From positions 2,336,001-2,400,000 of the forward strand of contig CBDCCI010000002.1 of NCBI GenBank assembly GCA_965214705.1: a stretch of DNA of 64,000 nucleotides. The letters are read 5' to 3'. Of this stretch, positions 36,542 through 61,290 are shown piece by piece. The notes under the pieces were generated by a model that was given only the letters and a program-made list of their open reading frames with translations, did no database searches and was not told the origin of the DNA. The translations under genes were made by a program, and so were the position numbers. The stretch's first letter is position 1, and each line of letters opens with the position of its first letter. Source of the stretch: Alphaproteobacteria bacterium. Lineage in GTDB: Bacteria; Pseudomonadota; Alphaproteobacteria; UBA828.

Positions 36542-36812
36542 CGGCCTCCGGCGCGGGGCCGGGCCTCCGGCCTGCGGCGGGCCCAGTGGGATAGTGCGAA
36601 CTTAAAATTCATGCGGGACGCGCCGGGATTAGGCGGGATAAGTGTGATGGGATGGGATTCCACGGCGACCGGCCACGCGCGCGGGATCGTACCGAGCGAG
36701 CCCGCTCATCATGCCGCCGCCGGTAGTGGTCCTATAGCGCGCGCAAGTCATGGCGCATTCGTGACGCAGCCGGCGCGCACCGTGCACCGCACCATGGTGC
36801 GGGTCGCTCGCG
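36542..36812 (-). repeat. Internally deleted copy of the DUF3486/gp27 cassette at 57.8-58.4 kb
   Basis: Shares GTGCACCGCACCATGGT (36782-36798 = 58412-58428) within a gap-free 36/50 block, and a 22/26 block with phased CGGGA repeats; encloses mini-ORF 36629-36712 MMSGLARYDPARVAGRRGIPSHHTYPA*. Confidence 0.72.
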
Positions 36813-52746: not shown

Positions 52747-54738
52747 ATGGAGGTTGCGCGCGTCGGCCCGGACCGGCGGAGTGAAACCATCGTCCGCCAG
52801 CCGTCGGACAGTCAGGACGGCCCCGTTTCCTCCCCCGACATCGAGCAGGTCATCCAGGATGCCGCCGCCGGCCTGCGCGGCCTCCAGCACGACGACGGCC
52901 ACTGGCTGTTCGAGCTCGAGGCCGATGCGACCATCCCGGCGGAGTACGTCCTCCTCAACCACTTCCTCGACGAGCTCGATCCCGAGACCGAGGCACGTCT
53001 GGGCACCTACATCCGCAGCCGCCAGGCCGAACACGGAGGCTGGCCCCTCTTCCACGGCGGCGCGTTCGACATCAGCTGCACCGTCAAGGCCTACTACGCC
53101 CTCAAGCTGATCGGCGACGCCCCTGACGCCCCGCACATGATGCGCGCCCGCGAGGCCGTGCTCGCCGCCGGCGGCGCCGCGCGCTGCAACGTGTTCACGC
53201 GGATCACGCTCGCACTCTTCGGCCAGGTGCCGTGGCGCGCCGCGCCGGCGATGCCAGTGGAGATCATAAAGCTGCCGCGCTGGTTCCCCTTCCACCTGGA
53301 CAAGGTCTCCTACTGGTCGCGCACCACCATCGTGCCGCTCACGATCCTGCTCGCGCTCAAGCCTCGCGCCAAGAACCCGCGGGGCGTCGGCATCGCGGAG
53401 CTGTTCACGACCCCGCCGGAGCAGGAATGGCACTATTTCCCGAGGGAGACCCTCACGCAGTGGTCCTTCCTTACCCTCGACCGTGCGCTCACGGTCGGCG
53501 AGAAGGCGATACCGGGCAGGGTGCGCCGCCGCGCGATCGACAAGGCGCTCGACTGGTGCATGACGCGCCTCAACGGCGAGGACGGCCTGGGCGCGATCTT
53601 CCCGCCGATGGCCAACGTGGTCATGGCCTTCGATGCCCTGGGCTACGGGCGCGATCATCCGCCGCGCCGCACCGCCCGCCGCGCGCTCGACCTGCTGCTG
53701 ACCGAGCCGGTGAACGGCAGCCAATACTGCCAGCCTTGCGTCTCGCCGGTCTGGGACACGGGGCTCGCTGCGCTGAGCCTCATGGAGTGCGACGGTGAGC
53801 AGGACCGCCGCGCGGCGGACGATTCCCTCCCCTGGCTCGCCGACCTGCAGATCTGCGATCTCGCGGGCGACTGGGCCGCCATGCGGCCGGACGCCCTGCC
53901 GGGAGGCTGGGCCTTCCAGTACCGCAACGACCATTACCCCGACGTGGACGACACGGCGGTGGTGGCGATGGCGCTCCACCGCGCCGATCCCCAGGCGCAC
54001 CGCGAGGCGATCGAGCGGGCGGCCGCGTGGATCATCGCCATGCAGAACGAGAACGGCGGCTGGGGCTCCTTCGACGCCGAGAACGAGCACTACGCGCTCA
54101 ACCACATTCCCTTCGCCGACCACGGCGCCCTGCTCGACCCCGCGACCGCCGATGTCAGCGCGCGCTGCGTGAGCTTCCTCTGTCAGATCGGCTATTCGCG
54201 CGAGCACGAGACCGTCGCCAAGGGGCTCGCCTATCTCCTCGCGGAGCAGGAGGAGAACGGCTCCTGGTTCGGCCGCTGGGGCACCAACTACATCTACGGC
54301 ACCTGGTCGGTGCTCTGCGCCCTGAACGCCGCCGGCGAAGACCCGGCCTCGCCCGCCGTCCGCAAGGCGGTCGCCTGGCTCGAAGCCAAGCAGCGCGCCG
54401 ATGGCGGCTGGGGCGAGACCGGCGACAGCTACTATGCCGAGCGCATCGAGACCGCGTTCGACGTGGTCTCGACCCCGTCGCAGACCGCGTGGGCGCTGCT
54501 CGCGCTCATGGCTGCGGGCGAAGTGCGGAGCGACGCGGTGCAGCGCGGCATCGACTATCTCTGCGGCGCCGAGCGCGAGGGGGCGAAGTGGCTGGAGGAC
54601 GACTACACCGCGGTCGGCTTCCCCCGCGTCTTCTACCTCCGCTATCACGGCTACAGCGCCTACTTCCCGCTGTGGGCACTGGCGCGCTACCGCTCGCTCA
54701 CGCGCGGCAACGACCACCGCCCGCGCTACGGCATGTAG
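52747..54738 (+). CDS. shc: Squalene-hopene cyclase
   Basis: Catalytic DVDD motif (YPDVDDTA), QW repeats, SPVWDT, GFPRVFYLRY. Confidence 0.96.
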   Translation: MEVARVGPDRRSETIVRQPSDSQDGPVSSPDIEQVIQDAAAGLRGLQHDDGHWLFELEADATIPAEYVLLNHFLDELDPETEARLGTYIRSRQAEHGGWPLFHGGAFDISCTVKAYYALKLIGDAPDAPHMMRAREAVLAAGGAARCNVFTRITLALFGQVPWRAAPAMPVEIIKLPRWFPFHLDKVSYWSRTTIVPLTILLALKPRAKNPRGVGIAELFTTPPEQEWHYFPRETLTQWSFLTLDRALTVGEKAIPGRVRRRAIDKALDWCMTRLNGEDGLGAIFPPMANVVMAFDALGYGRDHPPRRTARRALDLLLTEPVNGSQYCQPCVSPVWDTGLAALSLMECDGEQDRRAADDSLPWLADLQICDLAGDWAAMRPDALPGGWAFQYRNDHYPDVDDTAVVAMALHRADPQAHREAIERAAAWIIAMQNENGGWGSFDAENEHYALNHIPFADHGALLDPATADVSARCVSFLCQIGYSREHETVAKGLAYLLAEQEENGSWFGRWGTNYIYGTWSVLCALNAAGEDPASPAVRKAVAWLEAKQRADGGWGETGDSYYAERIETAFDVVSTPSQTAWALLALMAAGEVRSDAVQRGIDYLCGAEREGAKWLEDDYTAVGFPRVFYLRYHGYSAYFPLWALARYRSLTRGNDHRPRYGM

Positions 54739-54761
54739 CAACCCAGACGACCGGGCACGCC

Positions 54762-55544
54762 ATGGCTGACCGGTCCCGCATTGGCATCGTCACGGGCCTC
54801 GTGGCGGAGGCCGCGACCCTGCCCAAGGACGATTTCCGGATCGCGGTCTCGGCGGCCGACCCCGCGCGCGCGGCACAGGCGGCCGGTGCGATGGTCGCGG
54901 GCGGCGTGCGGCTGCTGGTGAGCTACGGCCTCGCCGCCGGGATCGATCCGCGCCTCGGCCCCGGCACTCTGCTTCTGCCTGAGTCGGTGATTGCCCACGA
55001 GGGGGAGGTCGAGGCGCCCGACCGCGGCGGCGTGCGCGACCAGCTCCAGCGGATGACCTCCTTCAGGCGAGAGGAGGGGCGAGGCCCGCCGGAGCCGCCG
55101 CCGGAGGAGGACTACCTGCCGGTGGATGCAACCTTGCGCGAGGTACTTTCCCAGGGTCTCGGGGAACGCGCCGAAGGCGGTGCGCTCGCCGGCGTGGACC
55201 ACCCGTTGACGTACGGCGACCAGAAGCTCTCGCTCTTCGCGCAGACTCGCGCCAGGGCCGCGGACATGGAGAGCCACGTCGTCGCCCGCGCTGCGGCGGC
55301 GGCTGGCGTGCCCTTCGTCGTGATCCGCGTCGTCAGCGACCCGAGCAACCGAGCGCTTCCGCGAGCGGCCATCGTCGGGGTCACCGAGGACGGGCGCATC
55401 AGCGGCGGAGCGGTCGCGGGCGCGCTGCTGCGGCGCCCGTGGGAATGCATGGATATGCTGACGCTCGCGCTCGACGGAGCGCAGGCGATGCGCCGGCTAC
55501 GCCGCGTTGGTCGCCGGTTGGCGCCCCTTCTCGCGAGCCTGTGA
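54762..55544 (+). CDS. hpnG: Hopanoid-associated nucleoside phosphorylase
   Basis: IVTGLVAEA, SYGLAAGIDP, ADMESH, IRVVSD; directly after shc. Confidence 0.85.
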   Translation: MADRSRIGIVTGLVAEAATLPKDDFRIAVSAADPARAAQAAGAMVAGGVRLLVSYGLAAGIDPRLGPGTLLLPESVIAHEGEVEAPDRGGVRDQLQRMTSFRREEGRGPPEPPPEEDYLPVDATLREVLSQGLGERAEGGALAGVDHPLTYGDQKLSLFAQTRARAADMESHVVARAAAAAGVPFVVIRVVSDPSNRALPRAAIVGVTEDGRISGGAVAGALLRRPWECMDMLTLALDGAQAMRRLRRVGRRLAPLLASL

Positions 55545-56669
55545 GGCTGCCTCTTCGGCCAGGCGTATCTCGCGCAGCTTATCCTGCACGTGCCGGTCGA
55601 ACATGTACTGGGCGGGGCGGGCCTTGGTCAGGTCGATCTCCGGCACCATCGGCCCGGTCGTCCTGATCCCGCGCAGCTTGACCATCAGCGCCGCCCAGGG
55701 CCGCGACAAGGAGTGCTCCGCCGCCGTCGGCTCGTAGCCGCAGTGGACCATGCAGTCCGCACACTTCTCGTAGCGGCCAGTGCCGTAGGAGTCCCAGTCG
55801 GTCTCCTCCATCAGCGCGCGGAAGCTCTCGGTATAGCCTTCGCCGATCAGGTAGCAGGGCTTTTGCCAGCCGAAGACGTTGCGGGTCGGGTTGCCCCAGG
55901 GCGTGCATTGGAAATCCTGGTTGCCGGCCAGGAAGTCCAGGAACAGGCTCGACTGGCTGAAGCGCCACTTCTTGCCCGCGCCGCGCGCGAAGATGTCGCG
56001 GAACAGCGCCTTGGTCTTGCTGCGGTTGAGGAAGTGCTGCTGGTCGGGCGCCCGCTCGTAGGAATAGCCGGGCGAGACCGTGATCGCCTCCACGCCCAGC
56101 TCGTCCGTCGCGAAGTCGAAGAATTCCGCAAGCCGCTCCGCCGGGTGGCCGTCAAAGACGGTGGCGTTGACGTTGACCCGGAAGCCCCGGCTGCGCGCCT
56201 CCTTGATCGCCGCCACGGCGCGCTTGAACGTACCGGGCTGATCGACCGCGTGGTCGTGCTCCTCCTCCAGCCCGTCGAGGTGGACCGAGAAGGTCAGGTA
56301 CTTGGTCGGCGTGAAGAGATCGAGCTTCTTCTTGAGCAGCAGCGCGTTCGTGCAGAGATAGACGAATTTCTTGCGCGCGATGATTTCGGAGACGATCTCG
56401 CCGATCTCGGGATGGATCAGCGGCTCGCCGCCGGGGATCGAGACCATCGGCGCACCGCACTCGTCCACCGCCTGCAGGCACTCGTCCAGGCTCAGGCGCT
56501 GGTTCAGGATTTCGGGCGGGTAGTCGATCTTGCCGCAGCCGGGGCACGCGAGGTTGCAGCGGAACAGCGGTTCCAGCATGAGCACGAGCGGATAGCGCTT
56601 CTCGCCCGCGAGCTTCTTGCCGACGATGTAGGCGCCGACGCGAATCTTCTGGATCAGCGGGACGGACAT
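55497..56669 (-). CDS. hpnH: Adenosyl-hopene transferase (radical SAM)
   Basis: LMLEPLFRCNLACPGCGKI, SPGYSYERAPDQ, CTPWG, CADCMVHCG. Confidence 0.95.
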   Translation of the reverse strand: MSVPLIQKIRVGAYIVGKKLAGEKRYPLVLMLEPLFRCNLACPGCGKIDYPPEILNQRLSLDECLQAVDECGAPMVSIPGGEPLIHPEIGEIVSEIIARKKFVYLCTNALLLKKKLDLFTPTKYLTFSVHLDGLEEEHDHAVDQPGTFKRAVAAIKEARSRGFRVNVNATVFDGHPAERLAEFFDFATDELGVEAITVSPGYSYERAPDQQHFLNRSKTKALFRDIFARGAGKKWRFSQSSLFLDFLAGNQDFQCTPWGNPTRNVFGWQKPCYLIGEGYTESFRALMEETDWDSYGTGRYEKCADCMVHCGYEPTAAEHSLSRPWAALMVKLRGIRTTGPMVPEIDLTKARPAQYMFDRHVQDKLREIRLAEEAASQAREKGRQPATNAA

Positions 56670-56675
56670 GAGCCC

Positions 56676-57653
56676 CTACTCGGCAGGCGCCGCACCGGCG
56701 GCCGGCTCCTGCGCCTTGCCGTTGCCGCTCGCCTCGACCAGCTCGGCCGGCAGCTTGAAGCGCACCCGCTCCTTGATCCCGTCCTGGATCTGCAGCTCGA
56801 CCGCGTTGATCTCGCGCAGCCGGGCGACCAGGTCCTGCACCAGCTCTTCCGGCGCCGACGCGCCGGCGGTCACGCCCACGCGGCGCACGCCGTCGAACCA
56901 CGTCGGGTCGAGGTCGCGAGCGTCGTCGATCAGGTGGGTCGGCACGCCCATCTCCTCGCCGATCTCGCGCAGGCGGTTGGAGTTGGAGCTGTTGCGCGCG
57001 CCCACGACGAGGATCAGCTCCACGTCTTCCGCCAGCTTGCGCACCGAAGCCTGGCGGTTCTGCGTCGCGTAGCAGATGTCCTTCACGTCGGGGCCGGAGA
57101 TGCTGGGGAAGCGCGAGGTCAGCGCTTCGATCACGTCGCGCGTGTCGTCGACGCTGAGCGTGGTCTGGGTGACGTAGGCCACCTTGTCCGGGTTGGCCAC
57201 CTCCAGCTTGGCCACGTCGTCGGGCGTGGCGACGATATGCACCCCGTTCTTCACGCGGCCGCTGGTACCCTCGACCTCGGGATGTCCGTCGTGGCCGATC
57301 AGGATGATCTCGCGGCCCTCGCGCTCGTAGCGCCTGGCCTCAATGTGCACCTTGGCGACCAGCGGGCAGGTGGCGTCGATCACCGGCAGGTTCCGACCCG
57401 CGGCCTCGCTCTCCACCTTCTCCGAGACGCCGTGGGCGCTGAAGATGGTGACCGCGCCCTCGGGCACCTCGTCGATCTCCTCGACGAAGACCGCGCCCTT
57501 CTTGCGCAGGTCGTCCACCACCCGCTTGTTGTGCACGATTTCGTGGCGGACGTAGACCGGCGGGCCGAATACTTCGAGCGCCCGCTCGACGATCTCGATT
57601 GCCCGCTCGACGCCTGCGCAGAAGCCTCGGGGCTCCGCCAGGATGACCTGCAT
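56676..57653 (-). CDS. ispH: 4-hydroxy-3-methylbut-2-enyl diphosphate reductase
   Basis: [43 protein letters not shown]. Confidence 0.96.
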
Positions 57654-57879
57654 GCTGCCGTTGTCGCCCACGTTAGGCCCTCGCTTAATCATGGGGGTGC
57701 TCGGGGCGGGACCGTCGACTCCGCACCCAGAGCCACCACTGCACCCTATCGCAGACCTGTGATTCCGACAACACGCAGGTTCCCCGTCCGTTTTCGGCAC
57801 CGGCCTCCCGAAAAGGCGGGCCGCCGGCCTGGGATTTTTGGCAAGAAACACACTTTTTTTGAGTCGGCACGAGCCGGGA

Positions 57880-58359
57880 TCATGCGGGATTCCCGTCTAC
57901 GTCCAAAGGATTCCGTCCCATGCTCCGGTCAGCGCTGACGGGGCGGGGCATCCGCTCGCGCTCCGCAAGCAGCTTGCCCGCGCCTTCGATGCGCAGCAGC
58001 GCAAGGGCGAGGCGGGCGATCTCAATCGGCTCCACCGGTTCTCCGTCTCTGTCGAGCGTGGCCACCGTCATCGCCGCCGCCGCGCCCACGGCTTCGAGCG
58101 CGACTGGCCGGGTGCCGTCCCTGGCACTCTCGACGATGGCGGCCGCCCAGGTCTTGGCGGCGCGGTCGATCTCGCGCCGCCGGTGGATCTGCTCGCGCCT
58201 GCGCTTGACGTAGCGGCCCACGGACGAGCGCGAGCACGCGGCGCCGTGTGCGCGAATCACCGCCGCGATGGCGTCGATGGTGGCGCCGTCCTCGATCGCC
58301 ACGTCCACGGCGGCGCGGATCTCGGGCGGCAACAGCTCAATTGTGGAACGCCGGCTCAT
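57880..58359 (-). CDS. Solitary phage Mu gp27-like (DUF3486) protein
   Basis: [15 protein letters not shown]...GATIDAI...SRSSVGRY N-terminal HTH pattern typical of DUF3486; GAGGGAG RBS; no other phage genes nearby. Confidence 0.72.
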
Positions 58360-58553
58360 ATCGCTCCCTCTCGCGTTGTGTGGCGCGATGCTGAAGCGGG
58401 CGCCGGAGGCTGTGCACCGCACCATGGTCCGGTGACTCGCGAGTGACGAGGCTACGCTCCCCTCTCCTTATGGTGCCGCTGGACCATTCGTCCGCCGCGC
58501 GCGGCGTGCTGTATCGTCAGGCAAGCACACGGAAACCACGCGAGGGCCAAGGG

Positions 58554-58895
58554 ATGACGCACGTCGCCGTATGCGTGACCGCCCCGAGCCGGGCCGAGGC
58601 CGAGGCCATCGGCCGCGCCCTGGTCGAAGCGCGCCTTGCGGCATCGGTCAATGTCGTGCCGGCCGTCTCATCCTTCTACTGGTGGGAGGGTGCGCTCCGC
58701 GAAGGCGACGAGGCCATGCTCTGGGCGAAGACCCGCGCCGATCTCGTCGGGCCGCTCACGGCCAAGGTCAAGGCGCTGCACAGCTACGCCTGCCCCTGCG
58801 TCATCGCCCTCCCGATCACGGGCGGTAACGCGGACTACCTCGCCTGGATCGACGCCGAAACGTCGCCTCCGCCCACCGATCCCGACAAGGCGTAA
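58554..58895 (+). CDS. cutA: Divalent-cation tolerance protein CutA
   Basis: LVEARLAASVN, SFYWWEG, LHSYACP, YLAWI. Confidence 0.92.
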   Translation: MTHVAVCVTAPSRAEAEAIGRALVEARLAASVNVVPAVSSFYWWEGALREGDEAMLWAKTRADLVGPLTAKVKALHSYACPCVIALPITGGNADYLAWIDAETSPPPTDPDKA

Positions 58896-58917
58896 CCCAC
58901 CGGTGACGGGACAGGCT

Positions 58918-58956
58918 CTACGGAACAGACCTACAGGTATCGGGAGGTGGTCTCAC
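58918..58956 (-). pseudogene. Vestigial PIN/VapC toxin N-terminus
   Basis: GTG overlapping the antitoxin stop gives VRPPPDTCRSVP*, a degenerate form of the usual MRLLLDTC start. Confidence 0.45.
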
Positions 58957-59201
58957 GTTTTCTCGCCACCGCCGTCGAACGCTGCCTGCAGATCGTGGGG
59001 GAGCGGCTCGAAGAAGGCGGCGGGAATGGTCATCCCCCGATCTATGCCCACCGGGCGTGGCTCGCGTGCCGGTTTGGGGAGCGCGCGAATCTCGGCGATC
59101 GGTACGTTGCGCCGGCACACGACAACCGTCTCACCTTGCTCGACGCTCTTGAGGTAACGCGAGAGGTGCGCCTTGGCCTCCGCTACACTGACTCGGATCA
59201 T
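58953..59201 (-). CDS. Phd/YefM family antitoxin (orphan)
   Basis: VSVAEAKAHLSRYL..VEQGETVVV..RNVPIA; FFEPLP tail. Confidence 0.88.
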   Translation of the reverse strand: MIRVSVAEAKAHLSRYLKSVEQGETVVVCRRNVPIAEIRALPKPAREPRPVGIDRGMTIPAAFFEPLPHDLQAAFDGGGEKT

Positions 59202-59232
59202 CGTCCCCTCACCAACCAACTTCCTAATTTAG

Positions 59233-60434
59233 GGAAGGTCTGATCAAGTCGGGTGTGCCATGATTTTCGTAGGAGTCGCAGATTGGATGATCGGGTCATG
59301 GCACAGGCGAGCTTTTCGGAACTGGAGCACGACTTGAAGAAGCGCCGGACGCGGCGCGAGCTGTTCCTGGAGAAGATGGACAAGCTGGTTCCCTGGGAGC
59401 GGCTGGAACGGCGGATCGAGCCGTTCTATCCGAAGGCGGGGCGCGGTCGGCGCCCGTACCCGCTTGCGGTGATGCTGCGCGTTCACTGCGTGCAGCTGTT
59501 CTACAACCTGAGCGATCCGGGGATGGAGGACCTGCTCTACGAGGTGGAGTCGGTGCGGCGTTTCGTGGGGCTGCGGCTGGCGGAGGCGTTGCCTGACGAG
59601 ACCACCATCCTGAACTTCCGGCATCTTCTGGAGAAGCACGGCCTGGGCGAGGGTCTGTTCGAGGAGATCAATGCGCACCTGGCGTCGCGCGGCCATTGGC
59701 TGCGCACGGGGACGATCGTTGACGCGAGCATCATCGAGGCGCCGTCGTCGACGAAGAACCGGCGCCGCGCACGGGACCCTGAGATGCGTCAGACGAGGAA
59801 GGGCAAGCAGTGGTATTTCGGGATGAAGGCGCACATCGGGGTGGACGCCGGGTCGGGTCTGGCACACAGCGTGGTGACGACGGCGGCCAACGCAAGCGAC
59901 GTGACGCAGGCGGGAGCGCTGCTGCATGGCGCTGAGACGACGGCGTGGGGCGACGCGGGCTACCAGGGGGTGGAGAAGCGTCCCGAGCACCGGGATGGCG
60001 GTGTCGAGTGGCGTGTGGCGATGAAGCCGGGGCGGCGCCGGCTGCTGGCCGGGGGTGGCGCCGAAGCGGCGGCCGAGACGCGCAAGGCGTCGGTGCGGGC
60101 GAAGGTGGAGCATCCGTTCCTGTACGTGAAGCGGCACTTCGGCTACGCCAAGGTGCGCTACCGGGGCGTGGCGAAGAACAGGCAGCGCATCGCGTTGCTG
60201 CTGGGGTTCTCGAACCTGCTGATCGCCGGCCGCTACGCGACGCAATGACAGGGGAGCAGTCCGCCCGCCGCCGGCGGGACGACGGGGAATGCGGCGGATC
60301 GACGCGGATATCGCCCGTTCGCTCCGTATCCCGCGACAAAAGCAGCCCCCGGCCTGCCGGCAATATCGTCGAGCTTCAAATCCAAGCCCCCTCTCCCCCT
60401 CGAAGCCGCCAAGATGGGGTTGTTCAGACTTTCC
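59233..60434 (+). mobile_element. IS5-family insertion sequence
   Basis: IRs GGAAGGTCTGATCAA and TTGTTCAGACTTTCC; TTAG target duplication at 59229-59232 and 60435-60438. Confidence 0.93.
59298..60248 (+). CDS. IS5 family transposase
   Basis: PDETTILNFR, IVDASII, WYFGMKAHIGVD, GDAGYQG, RAKVEHPF, KVRYRG. Confidence 0.96.
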   Translation: MAQASFSELEHDLKKRRTRRELFLEKMDKLVPWERLERRIEPFYPKAGRGRRPYPLAVMLRVHCVQLFYNLSDPGMEDLLYEVESVRRFVGLRLAEALPDETTILNFRHLLEKHGLGEGLFEEINAHLASRGHWLRTGTIVDASIIEAPSSTKNRRRARDPEMRQTRKGKQWYFGMKAHIGVDAGSGLAHSVVTTAANASDVTQAGALLHGAETTAWGDAGYQGVEKRPEHRDGGVEWRVAMKPGRRRLLAGGGAEAAAETRKASVRAKVEHPFLYVKRHFGYAKVRYRGVAKNRQRIALLLGFSNLLIAGRYATQ

Positions 60435-60634: not shown

Positions 60635-61012
60635 TCACCACTGCCGCGCCACGCCGACGGCGTCGAAGACCTCGTCGACCGAGACCAGCGCGCAGTTCTC
60701 CAGCCGCGCCTGGGCCGCAAGCAGGCGGTCCCACGGGTCGCGGTGGTCCCAGTCGAGCTGGGCCGCGTAGTCGGCGTGGTCGTGGGTGATGGCGAGGTCG
60801 TCCACGCCGTTGCGCCTGAGCGCGGCCCGCAGCTCTTGCGACGGCAAGGCGATGCGGCTGCGCTGCGCCTTCCACTCAAGCTCGTAGATCGAGACCGCGC
60901 TGACCAGCACGGCGTTCTTGCGATCGAGAATCAGCCCCCTGGCGGTCGCAGACAGTCTCCGACTGCCCGCGACCCACCAGTAGACGGCATGGCTATCGAG
61001 AAGCAGCCTCAC
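60635..61012 (-). CDS. VapC/PIN-domain toxin
   Basis: RLLLDSH, VSAVSIYE, HRDPWDRLLAAQA, LVSVD; GTG start overlaps the antitoxin stop. Confidence 0.9.
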   Translation of the reverse strand: MRLLLDSHAVYWWVAGSRRLSATARGLILDRKNAVLVSAVSIYELEWKAQRSRIALPSQELRAALRRNGVDDLAITHDHADYAAQLDWDHRDPWDRLLAAQARLENCALVSVDEVFDAVGVARQW

Positions 61013-61290
61013 GAAGCCTTCGGCGGGCCGCGCCAAATGCCGAGGGTGTCGCTGTAGCTGCCCGCGTCGATCATGGCCTGTTCCGGCTCCTCACGGTCGA
61101 AGAAGTCATCGGGCAGGTTGAGGTGCTTGAGCGGCGCGGCTTCCCGCTGCCCGACTTCGGCCGGCGGGACGATGCGCGCCTGCGGTTCGCTGCCCTTGGT
61201 GATCATGATCTCTTCGCCCTCCTTGGCGCGCGCCAGGAGGCTGGAGAAGCTGGCACGGGCCTCGGCTACCTTGAAAATCTTGGTCGGCAT
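61009..61290 (-). CDS. Phd/YefM family antitoxin
   Basis: KVAEARASFSSLL..AKEGEEIMITK..EPQARIVP. Confidence 0.88.
   Translation of the reverse strand: MPTKIFKVAEARASFSSLLARAKEGEEIMITKGSEPQARIVPPAEVGQREAAPLKHLNLPDDFFDREEPEQAMIDAGSYSDTLGIWRGPPKAS

Follow-up and report, generated by a model that had tools for sequence, protein, structure and literature searches.

What a gene of phage packaging type does alone between two ordinary bacterial genes, and what it belongs to, is the question raised by this locus. In the window (the whole stretch of 64,000 nucleotides that was analysed), the first-pass annotation had placed a solitary, intact 159-aa ORF with a ribosome-binding site between ispH and cutA and had read it as a Mu gp27-like small-terminase gene with conserved ends. 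The ORF was indeed found to be intact at 57883-58359 on the minus strand, with its stop codon at 57880-57882 and a GAGGGAG sequence before its start. It was found to lie within a cassette of about 650 bp (about 57790-58437) that contained the palindrome box1 at the 5′ end followed by the ORF and by the presence of a 3′ array of helically phased repeats of about 10 nt, to which an A/T tract and one more repeat are added. The features were as follows.

36583-36803, minus strand: ORF-less sister element (sequence comparison, motif classing)
56679-57653, minus strand: LytB/ispH, neighbouring gene (Pfam)
57797-57830, minus strand: GC-rich hairpin at the 3′ cassette edge, terminator-like on the plus strand (terminator scan)
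57829-57919, minus strand: type A tail (sequence and motif-density classing)
57883-58359, minus strand: gp27-like ORF, DUF3486, terminase-small-subunit-like (ORF call and translation, Pfam, PHROGs)
58364-58370, minus strand: Shine-Dalgarno-like GAGGGAG, about 4-6 nt before the ATG at 58359 (from sequence)
58378-58393, minus strand: box2, degenerate in the window copy, CAGCATCGCGCCACAC (alignment of all instances)
58412-58434, minus strand: box1, CACCGG-ACCATGGTGCGGTG-CAC, imperfect palindrome with CCATGG at its centre, situated at the 5′ cassette terminus
58548-58892, plus strand: CutA1, neighbouring gene (Pfam)
59253-60248, plus strand: IS5-type insertion sequence outside the cassette (Pfam DDE_Tnp_1 and DUF772)

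The gp27/DUF3486 identity proposed for the protein was upheld by profile search, where it matched Pfam PF11985 Phage_Mu_Gp27 (DUF3486) at E 1.7e-16 (61.5 bits, gathering cut-off 28) and PHROGs phrog_426 'terminase small subunit' at E 1.2e-19 over residues 1-136. The PF11985 match was found to cover profile positions 1-134 of 173, leaving the C-terminal segment 135-173 uncovered. In the alignment, the family C-terminal motif GLSPEAVAIIRxEVEG was common to prophage and full-length gp27-like copies and was missing from the window protein, which contained other residues in its place. The AF2 model (pLDDT 83.6) contained helices at residues 6-9, 12-23, 28-37, 44-80, 86-105 and 111-136, in which a predicted N-terminal helix-turn-helix (HTH) of three short helices at 6-37 (pLDDT 97-98 over residues 11-50) was followed by the presence of long helices. 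S43, S45 and R49 were found to be nearly invariant among 113 homologues. The structure searches, which had been proposed beside the profile search, gave no significant small-terminase match: the best Foldseek E value was 1.4 (among solved small terminases, G20C TerS 2.6 and P74-26 TerS 3.3, both non-significant), the wide VIA-align search with the model gave generic helical matches only (Z <= 8.4), and the search of solved-structure sequences with the 113-sequence profile gave two chance-level rows only (E 0.07 and 0.33). No meaningful match of the window protein was found among PADLOC defence families and NCBIfam.

The word-indexed homologue search gave six close homologues only (147-166 aa, 77-94% identity), and the related-locus search gave one locus from 595 pattern matches. 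In three other genomes, the orthologues were found to keep the 159-aa frame. The suggested test for neutral decay spoke against such decay, since the four orthologues, all of 159 aa and without indels, showed dN/dS of 0.23-0.32 (binomial p 0.015 to 2e-5); the values for the paralogues c1-c6 were 0.31-0.62. Matches in RNA libraries were relatives' contigs only, namely X19 contig 13 (379 nt, 18 differences over 57856-58210) and X20 contig 19 (170 nt, overlapping the window gene). Neither contig shows transcription or a start site; DNA can occur in such libraries, and only small shares of both runs (0.05-0.06) are present as contigs, the uncovered parts being uninformative. Within the Mu gp27/DUF3486 family, the window ORF is an intact member under selection that is shortened at its C-terminus.

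The ispH-cutA interval was 897 nt here versus 164-169 nt in the congeners G019, G020 and G007, and the cassette is inserted relative to these empty sites. Its box1 boundary and its 3′ end at about 57790 were set by comparison with the empty-site genomes. In most copies box2 was found to read CAnnATCGCGCCATG. The box2 ATG is the first in-frame ATG of the full-length paralogues c1-c6, whose CDS was taken from the second ATG, and it probably serves as start codon for the DUF5675 gene described below as well; a 10-bp hairpin spans this ATG. Box2 repeats the half-site CGCRCCATG, and the centre of box1 lies about 45 nt upstream of the box2 ATG. The type A tail contained ATCCCGC (57884-57890), ATCCCGG (57874-57880) and a degenerate TGCCGAC, followed by the presence of an A/T-rich tract (57841-57860) and ATCCCAG (57829-57835), the first repeats overlapping the last codons of the ORF. 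The cassette contained one ORF only and no integrase, replication or regulatory gene. Its ends were found to be unlike, with a palindrome at one and direct repeats at the other, and no terminal inverted repeats were present. No target-site duplication was visible against empty alleles at either polymorphic site, and none is definable because the intergenic sequences differ too much. The Rfam scan of 57000-59300 at E <= 1 gave no family. For a possible RNA stem of box1 and box2 (11-bp pairing), no usable covariation was found because the 5′ side is nearly invariant; position 3 varies in 7 cases, of which at most 2 stay paired.

The recurrence of the end motifs at 36.6-36.8 kb was confirmed. A 17-nt exact match was found between 58412-58428 and 36782-36798, and repeats of GGGAT type occur in similar form at 57829-57919 and at about 36583-36665. 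The sister element contained a box1 core (36785-36798), box2, about 110 nt and a type A tail (about 36583-36665). The 14-mer ACCATGGTGCGGTG at <=1 mismatch gave 3 matches at 2 sites in the window (expected 0.01), and 0 of 100 shuffles reached 3. The claim that the surroundings lack a transposase did not hold outside the cassette, where the DDE transposase gene of the IS5-type element was found at 59253-60245; this element is absent from the relative L009 and is a later insertion unrelated to the cassette.

The gene proved to be solitary at its locus and otherwise one of 9 gp27-like copies among 46 oriented box1 sites in the genome. The genome-wide PF11985 search gave 8 matches over the cut-off and 1 weak match, which make up the 9 copies. 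Nine box1 sites contained a gp27-like ORF and 28 were ORF-less with an array, so that the cassette design recurs 37 times. The box1 14-mer gave 56 matches at <=1 mismatch, and the 17-mer gave 23, 38 and 48 matches at 0, 1 and 2 mismatches versus 0, 0 and 1 for the reversed control. Within ±15 kb of the 9 copies, no neighbour was common at one position beyond the unit of about 0.9 kb, and the other shared flank stretches were transposable-element copies or lay elsewhere in the flanks. The flanks of c1, c2 and c4-c6 were ordinary metabolic genes, whereas transposase genes adjoin c7 and an integrase gene adjoins c3 and c9, which share a 1.5-kb integrase region upstream. Box1 was considered as a simple downstream promoter; among the 35 ORF-less sites examined, the next gene was co-directional at roughly 22 and opposed at 12, and box1 is therefore not simply the promoter of the neighbouring gene. 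A conserved small peptide from the box2 ATG of ORF-less elements was likewise rejected, the translations being unrelated. Even spacing of the elements along contigs was not seen by eye in the coordinates. The literature search gave no published description of such cassettes.

Three further box1 sites were found to directly precede a portal gene, a complete head-tail cluster and a DUF5675 gene pair, all without a tail array. The portal is the sole PF06074 Mu-type portal in the genome (G000:C3:1237022-1238020), on the same contig as the window gene and about 1.16 Mb from it. Its box1 lies 42 nt past the stop of the adjoining large terminase gene (TerL) and about 100 nt before the portal start, and a degenerate box1 was found at the start of TerL. 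In the head-tail cluster, box1 lies 173 nt before the gene of a 360-aa protease, followed by the presence of scaffold, major head, neck, tail terminator, major tail, 269-aa tape measure, J-like protein and collar fibre genes. The particle gene set is thus split over at least three loci. Mor, Mu F and Terminase_6N had no match in the genome, and Mu-transpos_C matches were found at 7 other places. A site at C3:2567 kb (L081) was considered as a second head module and rejected; PHROGs was blank, box1 was followed by a type A tail, and the site is an ORF-less element beside ordinary genes. Since the shared 5′ motif heads the portal, the head-tail cluster and the DUF5675 pair, the context is most likely a domesticated multi-locus Mu-like particle system rather than a phage-free one. 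The earlier statement that no prophage is present is right for the window; outside it, the genome carries this split, box1-headed set. The interpretation as a whole was supported as to protein family, solo locus and conserved ends, and had not foreseen the further copies, the missing C-terminal motif or the link to particle genes. The roles it had suggested, namely hijacking or jamming of packaging, transduction of neighbouring DNA and regulation, are putative.

Box1, gp27-like genes and particle genes were found to co-occur in 17 of 20 congeners. Taken singly, gp27 was found in 17, the box1 14-mer in 17 (3 to 47 matches), the portal in 18 and the capsid in 16, and G011, G015 and G016 contained no box1, no gp27-like gene and no capsid. 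The capsid was 88-99% identical in 15 of 16 genomes and single-copy in 13 of 16, with a 5′-truncated match in G004. According to the coordinates, the same RidA-like gene lies beside the head-tail cluster, 5-21 kb from the capsid, in 10 genomes. The structural genes were thus found to be fixed and vertically inherited in the host clade, one of the traits by which a gene transfer agent (GTA) is recognised. Conservation of the flanks among other copies, on which the early reading depended, was observed; in 69 gp27-like copies from 18 genomes, box1 was present 87-230 nt upstream in 59, and a phased-repeat array was scored in 54 (threshold >=3 motifs per 90 nt), 6 more being borderline. Every solo gp27-like gene contained box1. 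The 10 copies without box1 included those in the classic gp27-TerL-portal order, and prophage-type gp27 genes contained neither box1 nor array. At ispH-cutA, the gp27-like gene was found in G000, G014, G006, G017, G018 and G003, and an ORF-less element with box1 in G008. The sister site at 36.6 kb was empty in G008, G011, G015 and G016 and contained a type C element in G020.

The array types A-E were found to track the protein sub-clade and the recognition helix. All 9 type B arrays fell in one clade (support 100/100), of which types C and D form sub-clades. The recognition helix RSAV-x-RY contained G at x in 27/27 type A proteins read (13 type A proteins were not read by the helix pattern), V or C in 9/9 type B proteins and N or A in type D, and it read RAAVGRY in type C (2/2) and RSAIARY in type E. 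Only A and B proteins are encoded in G000, in which type C arrays numbered 0 and 11 of 11 type B arrays were downstream of a box1. Between types, the HTH was found to differ little, at one or two residues. About four evolutionary switches underlie the array-helix correlation, and co-inheritance could be its source, since each cassette is passed on as a unit. This anatomy, in which array type co-varies with the recognition helix, agrees with the initial picture of a single DNA-binding packaging protein and its binding array.

With a confidence that falls just short of even, the cassettes are read here, from sequence comparison, as putative modules of a terminase small subunit and its binding array that belong to the domesticated Mu-like particle system, the window copy being a truncated DNA-binding derivative. 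Box1 and box2 would be the common promoter-operator of this vertically inherited, multi-locus, GTA-like system, and the gp27-like proteins would be its DNA-recognition subunits of small-terminase type. The gp27-like HTH would bind the array adjoining its own gene as well as ORF-less arrays of the same type, and each cassette would act as a chromosomal packaging-initiation (pac-like) module. Full-length copies may recruit the single large terminase via the conserved C-terminal motif, by analogy with the GTA of Rhodobacter capsulatus (RcGTA), for which deletion of the C-terminal helix of the small terminase is described as abolishing binding to the TerL ATPase domain (PMC6854486). The window copy was found to keep the HTH, the helical core, box1 and the type A array and to have lost the C-terminal motif. 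Judging from these parts, an oligomer of it most likely still binds type A arrays but brings in no terminase. Its role would then be that of a modulator, which covers or masks sites or regulates transcription, and not that of an initiator of packaging. Several observations count against the modular packaging reading as a whole: box1 forms the extreme end of the cassette and two IS insertions follow its GGTG, which also fits a recombination site; G018 has 26 exact box1 matches, one gp27-like gene and no capsid found; the elements show no even spacing by eye; the Foldseek and VIA-align results were non-significant; and the RNA contigs came from relatives only.

The best surviving alternative, itself unlikely, takes up the satellite idea of the first-pass annotation and sees the cassettes as minimal elements that parasitise either the resident Mu-like particle system or incoming Mu-like phages. 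Their own small terminase and pac-like array would cause the cassette and adjoining DNA to be packaged preferentially, ORF-less copies would use the protein in trans, and truncated copies would interfere with packaging. Such parasites would fit the presence/absence polymorphism at two orthologous sites, the 1-15 gp27-like copies per genome, the excess of ORF-less over ORF-bearing cassettes (28 to 9), the coexistence of several array specificities, and the relatives' contigs, in which an internal-deletion allele (57935>58350) and an empty-site-like allele were found. Bona fide Mu-like prophages occur in G002, G012 and G006, and satellites with their own TerS are described (PICMI, PMC10803314). 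However, the cassette lacks integrase, replication and regulatory genes, an integrase adjoining c3 and c9 only; its length of 0.65-1 kb is well under that of any described satellite; box1 is missing from prophage-type gp27 genes; and no PADLOC defence family was matched. As the host-fixed particle genes also have box1, co-regulation is favoured over parasitism. The ispH-cutA copy has orthologues in several species and its sequence has diverged together with the flanking DNA, and hence it has not moved recently.

That the gp27-like HTH proteins are activators or repressors acting on box1/box2 in place of a missing Mor/C-type late activator is quite unlikely. Both the dispersed particle genes and the gp27-like genes themselves would be under their control, with the window copy as a dedicated regulator and the 3′ arrays as incidental or secondary sites. 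The dyad symmetry of box1, the position of its centre about 45 nt before the box2 ATG, the half-site in box2 and the lack of a Mor homologue are in line with such regulation, as is the presence of box1 on every solo gp27-like gene, which autoregulation needs. The recognition helix, likewise box1, is nearly invariant across types, and G018 keeps 26 exact box1 matches with a single gp27-like gene, at ispH-cutA (its capsid was not found with the query used). However, regulation leaves unexplained the homogenised, phased, type-specific arrays, their retention in 28 ORF-less copies and up to 15 copies of one regulator. To our knowledge, no gp27/DUF3486 protein acts as a transcription factor.

It is very unlikely that the cassettes form a MITE-like family unrelated to packaging, with box1 and the tail as recombination ends for a recombinase or transposase encoded elsewhere (candidates are the P4-type integrase by c3/c9 or the abundant IS91/Xer-type elements) and the gp27-like protein as an accessory DNA-bending or end-binding factor. 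In many copies the homology starts at box1 (about 15 matches from query 1353-1365), which resembles a recombinase core with two inverted 8-10-bp arms around CCATGG, and two IS insertions sit exactly inside box1, after its GGTG. Next to c3 and c9 there is an integrase and next to c5 a tRNA gene, the sequences flanking c1 are non-adjacent in relatives, and IS91/Xer-type pairs lie within 0.15-1.3 kb of 4/35 ORF-less sites. Nevertheless, the ends are not linked by terminal inverted repeats, neither of the two sites with empty alleles shows a visible target duplication, and box1 before the tail-less portal, head-tail and DUF5675 loci is left unexplained; moreover, the protein family is named for packaging in every characterised context (Pfam, PHROGs). 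Neutral debris of an old Mu-like prophage at ispH-cutA, with the shared motifs as a common intergenic repeat, is barely credible: the protein is truncated against the profile and the genome is rich in IS elements and rearrangements, but this reading is largely refuted by the four intact orthologues under constraint, the six further homologues of 147-166 aa, the ends conserved in 59/69 copies and a stop codon in only 3 of roughly 130 PF11985 matches across the genus.

A wider version of the packaging-module reading is doubtful, though conceivable. In it, a domesticated Mu-like GTA would package non-randomly, steered by some 40 small cassettes per genome as launch pads (gene and array, or array only), with at least five orthogonal specificities (A-E) evolving in step and truncated copies such as that at ispH-cutA acting as site-occupying modulators. 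GTAs are thought to package host DNA without sequence preference, and the cassettes may bear on how a phage terminase loses or changes DNA recognition. The genus would offer a contrasting design, in which copies of the recognition subunit are multiplied and dispersed together with candidate recognition arrays of several co-varying types and the cassettes are wired to the control motif of a fixed Mu-like particle gene set. If the arrays were true initiation sites, an abundant intergenic repeat family would be explained, the most-transferred chromosomal regions would become predictable, and natural matched protein/site pairs would be at hand for studies of small-terminase specificity; a GTA steered by cassettes would be a new way of organising the entry of host DNA into transfer particles. 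Should the packaging idea fail, the cassettes still represent repeat elements of an undescribed class, with conserved ends and one gene or none, and purifying selection acts on at least some of their ORFs.

Among known systems, Mu gp27/DUF3486 (PF11985, PHROG 426) is the closest in protein, the window protein belonging to the profile over the N-terminal HTH and the helical core. In Mu-like phages, as in the prophage copies of the congeners, the classic gp27-TerL-portal order is kept, whereas the window gene has neither TerL nor portal beside it and is flanked by ispH and cutA. Unlike Mu gp27, window-type copies are multi-copy and carry box1 and a repeat array, and the window copy lacks the C-terminal motif. 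In pac and cos phages the small terminase gene stands beside its recognition site, as for lambda Nu1 with the cosB R sites and an IHF site, or SPP1 G1P with pac. The cassette is similar in that an HTH protein gene adjoins phased copies of a short site and an A/T-rich bendable tract, the types co-varying; it differs in its dozens of dispersed chromosomal copies, many of them gene-less, and in at least five specificity types in the genus, binding here being predicted.

RcGTA is described as having a multi-locus 'genome' (Hynes et al. 2016, PMC5026251), and the likeness lies in phage-derived particle genes fixed in a bacterial clade and split over several loci. Its small terminase, the C-terminus of which binds TerL, is described as binding DNA weakly, with packaging presented without sequence preference in the passages concerned (Sherlock et al. 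2019, PMC6854486); according to its authors, GTA small terminases had not been known until that work. As described there, RcGTA is HK97-like with one small-terminase gene, whereas the system here is Mu-like (Mu-type portal, 360-aa protease), its small-terminase-like gene is amplified with adjoining arrays, and the particles are predicted. Lateral transduction, in the accounts given in PMC8575950 and PMC8575938, would be comparable if the arrays are pac-like, since in situ chromosomal packaging carries neighbouring genes; there it starts from a whole prophage or PICI, whereas here putative launch pads of 0.3-1 kb lie in about 40 places. PICI satellites, and PICMI satellites as presented in PMC10803314, likewise steer the packaging machine of a helper with a private small terminase and pac. 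These satellites are several kb long with integrase and regulation genes, whereas the cassettes contain one gene or none, have an integrase adjoining 2/9 copies and share their control motif with the resident particle genes.

The gp27-like gene between ispH and cutA, called solitary by the first-pass annotation, was found to be one of a dispersed family, as the genome holding the window (G000) contained 8 places over the PF11985 cut-off and 1 weak place. Its assignment to gp27/DUF3486 was upheld by profile search, in which the intact 159-aa protein matched Pfam PF11985 (Phage_Mu_Gp27) with E 1.7e-16 and 61.5 bits (cut-off 28), over profile positions 1-134 of 173 only, and PHROG 426 'terminase small subunit' with E 1.2e-19. 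The AF2 model (113-sequence alignment, mean pLDDT 83.6) was all-helical and contained a three-helix N-terminal unit followed by long helices at 44-80, 86-105 and 111-136; structure searches with this model were uninformative. The cassette was found to contain a palindrome (box1), a second motif (box2), the ORF and a phased 3′ repeat array (the tail), and the window features were as follows.

Features of the window around the cassette, and the ORF-less element (box1 and tail without the gene)
36583-36803: ORF-less type A element
52747-54738, + strand: presumably squalene-hopene-cyclase-like ORF (from translation), followed by a further ORF to about 55544 (+)
55497-56669, - strand: ORF taken to be radical-SAM (from translation), adjoined by ispH
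56679-57653, - strand: ispH/LytB, left neighbour of the gp27-like ORF (Pfam)
57797-57830: GC hairpin of the cassette
57829-57919: type A tail
57883-58359, - strand: gp27-like ORF, 159 aa (from translation), start preceded by GAGGGAG
58378-58393: box2, degenerate, ATG lost; the ORF starts at its own SD-led ATG
58412-58434: box1
58548-58892, + strand: cutA, right neighbour of the gp27-like ORF (Pfam)
58956-59219, - strand: Phd/YefM-like gene
59253-60248: IS5-type insertion sequence (DDE_Tnp_1 and DUF772, Pfam), transposase at 59253-60245
61012-61290 and 60638-61036, - strand: Phd-PIN toxin-antitoxin pair

The ispH gene was the last of what we take to be a hopanoid-type cluster (52747-57653, genes on both strands), in which ispH was assigned by Pfam and the other names were read from translations. 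The region had been described as lacking a transposase, which the IS5-type transposase contradicts. This element was missing from the closest relative (locus L009), where the flanks were joined directly, and it is therefore regarded as a later, unrelated insertion. It was found to be flanked by the Phd/YefM-like gene and the Phd-PIN pair.

The proposed recurrence of the end motifs at 36.6-36.8 kb was confirmed by an exact match of 17 nt between 58412-58428 and 36782-36798. Allowing for 1 mismatch at most, the 14-mer ACCATGGTGCGGTG was found at 2 sites in the window (expected 0.01; observed count reached in 0 of 100 shuffles) and gave 56 hits in the whole genome (7.92 Mb, 3 contigs), and the 17-mer was counted 23, 38 and 48 times at 0, 1 and 2 mismatches, against 0, 0 and 1 for the reversed control. 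The shared end motifs are real and far from chance. The full form of box1 was found to be ccCCGG-ACCATGGTGCGGTG-CAC with a dyad around CCATGG, followed by about 22 GC-rich nt and box2 (CAnnATCGCGCCATG). The centre of the dyad lies about 45 nt upstream of the box2 ATG, a geometry that would suit an activator-dependent promoter with a leaderless or short-leader message. Two box1 copies (G000 C1:2073838 and C2:394788, both +) were broken exactly after ...GGTGC(A/G)GTG by similar AT-richer sequence (TC..GGGGTACGCTG..), and judged from these two copies some mobile element seems to target the palindrome.

Among the 46 correctly oriented box1 matches in G000, 9 were followed by a gp27-like ORF, 28 were ORF-less with a tail 110-250 nt downstream (16 type A and 12 type B, classes being assigned by simple motif density), 3 stood before phage-particle-type genes without a tail, and 6 were other or interrupted. 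The type A tail contained at least three (A/G)TCCC(A/G)(C/G) boxes at a spacing of about 10 nt, followed by an A/T-rich tract and one more box; the type B tail contained CCACCTTGGG three to four times followed by GGCCGGAATA two to three times. Every gp27-like copy of G000 (c1-c9) carried box1 upstream. The unit common to the full-length copies c1-c6 was only 0.9-1 kb (80-92% identity), and other stretches shared within 15 kb on either side were transposable-element copies or placed elsewhere, with c3 and c9 also sharing a 1.5-kb integrase region. Copies c1, c2 and c4-c6 were flanked by ordinary metabolic or housekeeping genes, c5 abutted a tRNA gene, c7 adjoined transposase genes, and a P4-type integrase lay divergently upstream of c3 and c9.

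The c9 copy (in L017, G000 C1:2793755-2806254) had box1 and encoded a gp27-like protein of 392 aa that was divergent in sequence (PF11985 E 2e-4); it was followed by a 1207-aa protein without Pfam or PHROG match and preceded by a P4-type integrase region 93% identical to that of c3; the locus may be a small island. Of the 35 ORF-less box1 sites examined, 4 had a two-gene element (a Xer-like integrase and an IS91-type Y2 transposase) at a distance of 0.15-1.3 kb (L038, L040, L043 and L048; G000 C1:1442120, 986388 and 81223, and C3:1711314), possibly above expectation given that the 7.9-Mb genome has about 90 such elements. A further repeat family, (T/A)TCATTTCCCTCAA(T/C)(C/G)GCCGGGCGC... followed by the GC palindrome GCGCGCGGCGC...GCGCGCCGTCCGGGCC, was seen upstream of c1-c5 (e.g. 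L010:5570-5860). In several full-length cassettes 1-3 of these repeats, arranged in tandem, immediately preceded box1, and in congeners the repeats also lay downstream of some copies.

Between conserved anchors the ispH-cutA interval measured 897 nt in G000, 902 nt in congener G014 (identical to L009) and 894 nt in G006, and 164-169 nt in G019, G020 and G007. The alignment placed the cassette bounds at about 57790-58437 with box1 at the very edge, and the cassette is evidently an insertion with defined ends. At the same site a gp27-like gene was also found in G017, G018 and G003 (full length in G003), an ORF-less element with box1 in G008, and a partial replacement in G010. Relatives' contigs from sponge-metagenome run X10 contained an empty-site-like joint (57733>58560, with 85 other letters between) and an internal deletion (57935>58350). 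The 36.5-36.87-kb site was likewise polymorphic: empty in G008 (79 nt), G011, G015 and G016, with a type A element in G000, G017, G014, G013 and G004, a tail-only remnant in G012, and box1 with a third array type in G020. Comparison with congeners revealed no definable target duplication at the ispH-cutA site or at the 36.5-36.87-kb site. At the site orthologous to that of the 36.6-kb element, G005 contained an 807-nt insert of unrelated sequence without PF11985 match (L154, G005:C4:1231875-1232667), and similar-sized inserts were found in G018 and G002.

The box1 motif was also found on genes for a phage particle. The single Mu-type portal of G000 (PF06074, C3:1237022-1238020) lay directly downstream of a 470-aa large terminase (TerL, Terminase_6C), the pair sitting among ordinary genes with pyruvate carboxylase on one side; box1 was found 42 nt past the TerL stop, about 100 nt before the portal start, and a degenerate box1 (4 mismatches) at the TerL start. 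A box1 at C3:2819245 headed a 15-kb head-tail cluster containing, in order, a head maturation protease (360 aa), a scaffold or cement protein, a major head protein (349 aa), a neck protein, a tail terminator, a major tail protein, a short tape measure (269 aa), DUF1833, a J-like protein (1225 aa) and a collar fibre. A third box1 lay at C3:2897530, and a DUF5675 gene probably starts at the ATG of its box2. Next to this gene came one for a 176-aa protein (phrog_6637; weak Caa3_CtaG-like membrane-protein match), and the two (L082:12422-13519, G000 C3:2896422-2897519, -) could be a lysis-type pair of the particle system. Mor, Mu F and Terminase_6N had no match in the G000 genome, and the 7 Mu-transpos_C matches were all elsewhere than the particle loci. 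The claimed absence of a prophage stood for the window; elsewhere the genome has a split Mu-like particle gene set headed by box1.

Across the 20 congeners, where counts are descriptive because kin are not independent, and where genes were called in unannotated genomes by a GC3-based heuristic, PF11985 was found in 17 (1-15 matches each), the exact box1 14-mer in 17 (3-47 matches), the portal in 18 and the capsid in 16 (identity 88-99% in 15 of them, one copy only in 13; the G004 match 5′-truncated). G011, G015 and G016 were without box1, gp27 and capsid, with a partial portal-like match in G015, and PF11985 was absent from the 4 other genera of the family and the 5 genomes of the order that made up the sample. 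G018 was odd in containing 26 box1 matches, one gp27-like gene (the ispH-cutA copy) and no capsid match with the query used. In 6 genomes the distal end of the head-tail cluster ran directly into the same RidA-like flank, and by coordinates this flank lay 5-21 kb from the capsid in 10. In G006 and G010 box1 kept its position ahead of the portal, and in G014 and G001 its position ahead of the capsid cluster. Copies in classic Mu-like order, with the portal about 2 kb downstream (G002:C5:837-7913, G002:C6:494769-501858, G012:C9:184870-187925, G006:C24:13254-16428), were without box1 and arrays, which indicates that true Mu-like prophages circulate in the genus beside the domesticated set.

Arrays and proteins were compared in 69 gp27-like copies, 9 from G000 and 60 from 17 congeners, the latter hand-picked from about 130 PF11985 matches to span scores and genomes. 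Conservation of the ends among solo copies was borne out: in 59 of the 69, a box1 with no more than 2 mismatches preceded the Pfam match by 87-230 nt. Most of the other 10 had no array, and their number included copies arranged as gp27-TerL-portal. Further array types were C, (C/G)TT(G/A)TCTC(G/A)(G/C) five to seven times, D (CCAGTTTGTG-like) and E (TTGTGCCG-like), and all types shared one layout, in which the phased repeats are followed by an A/T tract and a final repeat. In the maximum-likelihood tree all 9 type B arrays fell in one clade (100/100), with C and D as sub-clades inside and no type A inside. The predicted recognition helix, RSAV-x-RY, contained G at x in 27 of 27 readable type A copies (13 were unread by the pattern, including the window's RSSVGRY), V or C in 9 of 9 of type B, N or A in the 2 of type D (one each), RAAVGRY in both of type C, and RSAIARY in the single type E case. 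G000 encoded A and B proteins only and contained no type C arrays, and its type B arrays lay downstream of box1 in 11 of 11. The pattern suggests that the HTH reads the array; it is suggestive and not proof, because evolutionary switches were few and the units are inherited together.

The orthologues in G000, G014, G006 and G017 were 159 aa each with zero indels, and the proposed dN/dS check gave 0.23-0.32 pairwise (binomial against neutrality p 0.015 to 2e-5, pairs not independent); the paralogues c1-c6 gave 0.31-0.62. Six more homologues in the protein collection were 147-166 aa long with 77-94% identity, and a stop codon was found in only 3 of about 130 PF11985 matches across the genus. The window-copy clade had a long stem branch (0.85) and short tips on the maximum-likelihood tree, evidently a phase of rapid change and then one of conservation. 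When G000 was compared with G014/L009, dS was 0.083 for the gp27-like gene against 0.20-0.24 for ispH, hpnH, cutA and the Phd-like gene; additional constraint at the DNA level or gene conversion may be the cause. In the alignment, full-length copies and the congeners' prophage-type gp27 ended in G-L-S-P-E-A-V-A-I-I-R-x-E-V-E-G or a variant, a segment in place of which the window protein and its orthologues contained other residues; L131 and L136 formed a second truncated clade. In the gene transfer agent RcGTA, the small terminase needs its C-terminal helix to bind the ATPase domain of TerL (PMC6854486), and by analogy the window protein should fail to recruit terminase.

That all particle-gene loci and all cassettes have the same 5′ motif speaks for common control of both, and that the 3′ arrays differ by type suggests that each protein type has a binding site of its own, the candidate array. 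We propose a domesticated, GTA-like, multi-locus Mu-like particle system whose DNA-recognition subunit would have been amplified and scattered together with its sites, the window copy being a putative terminase-blind derivative under selection. Alternatively, the cassettes may be selfish hitchers, the proteins a transcription-factor family acting on box1, or the whole a repeat family driven by a recombinase. The explanation as neutral debris is largely refuted.

In open-access papers, a halovirus genome description was the sole mention of DUF3486 found. No Mu-like GTA was described, by title and opening of the abstract, among the open-access papers listed, and the open-access literature found, on terminase structure, lateral transduction and satellites, described no dispersed terminase/array cassettes. 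The proposed domesticated particle system would resemble RcGTA in its multi-locus organisation (PMC5026251), and small terminase/pac pairs in that each protein type is found with its own 3′ array.
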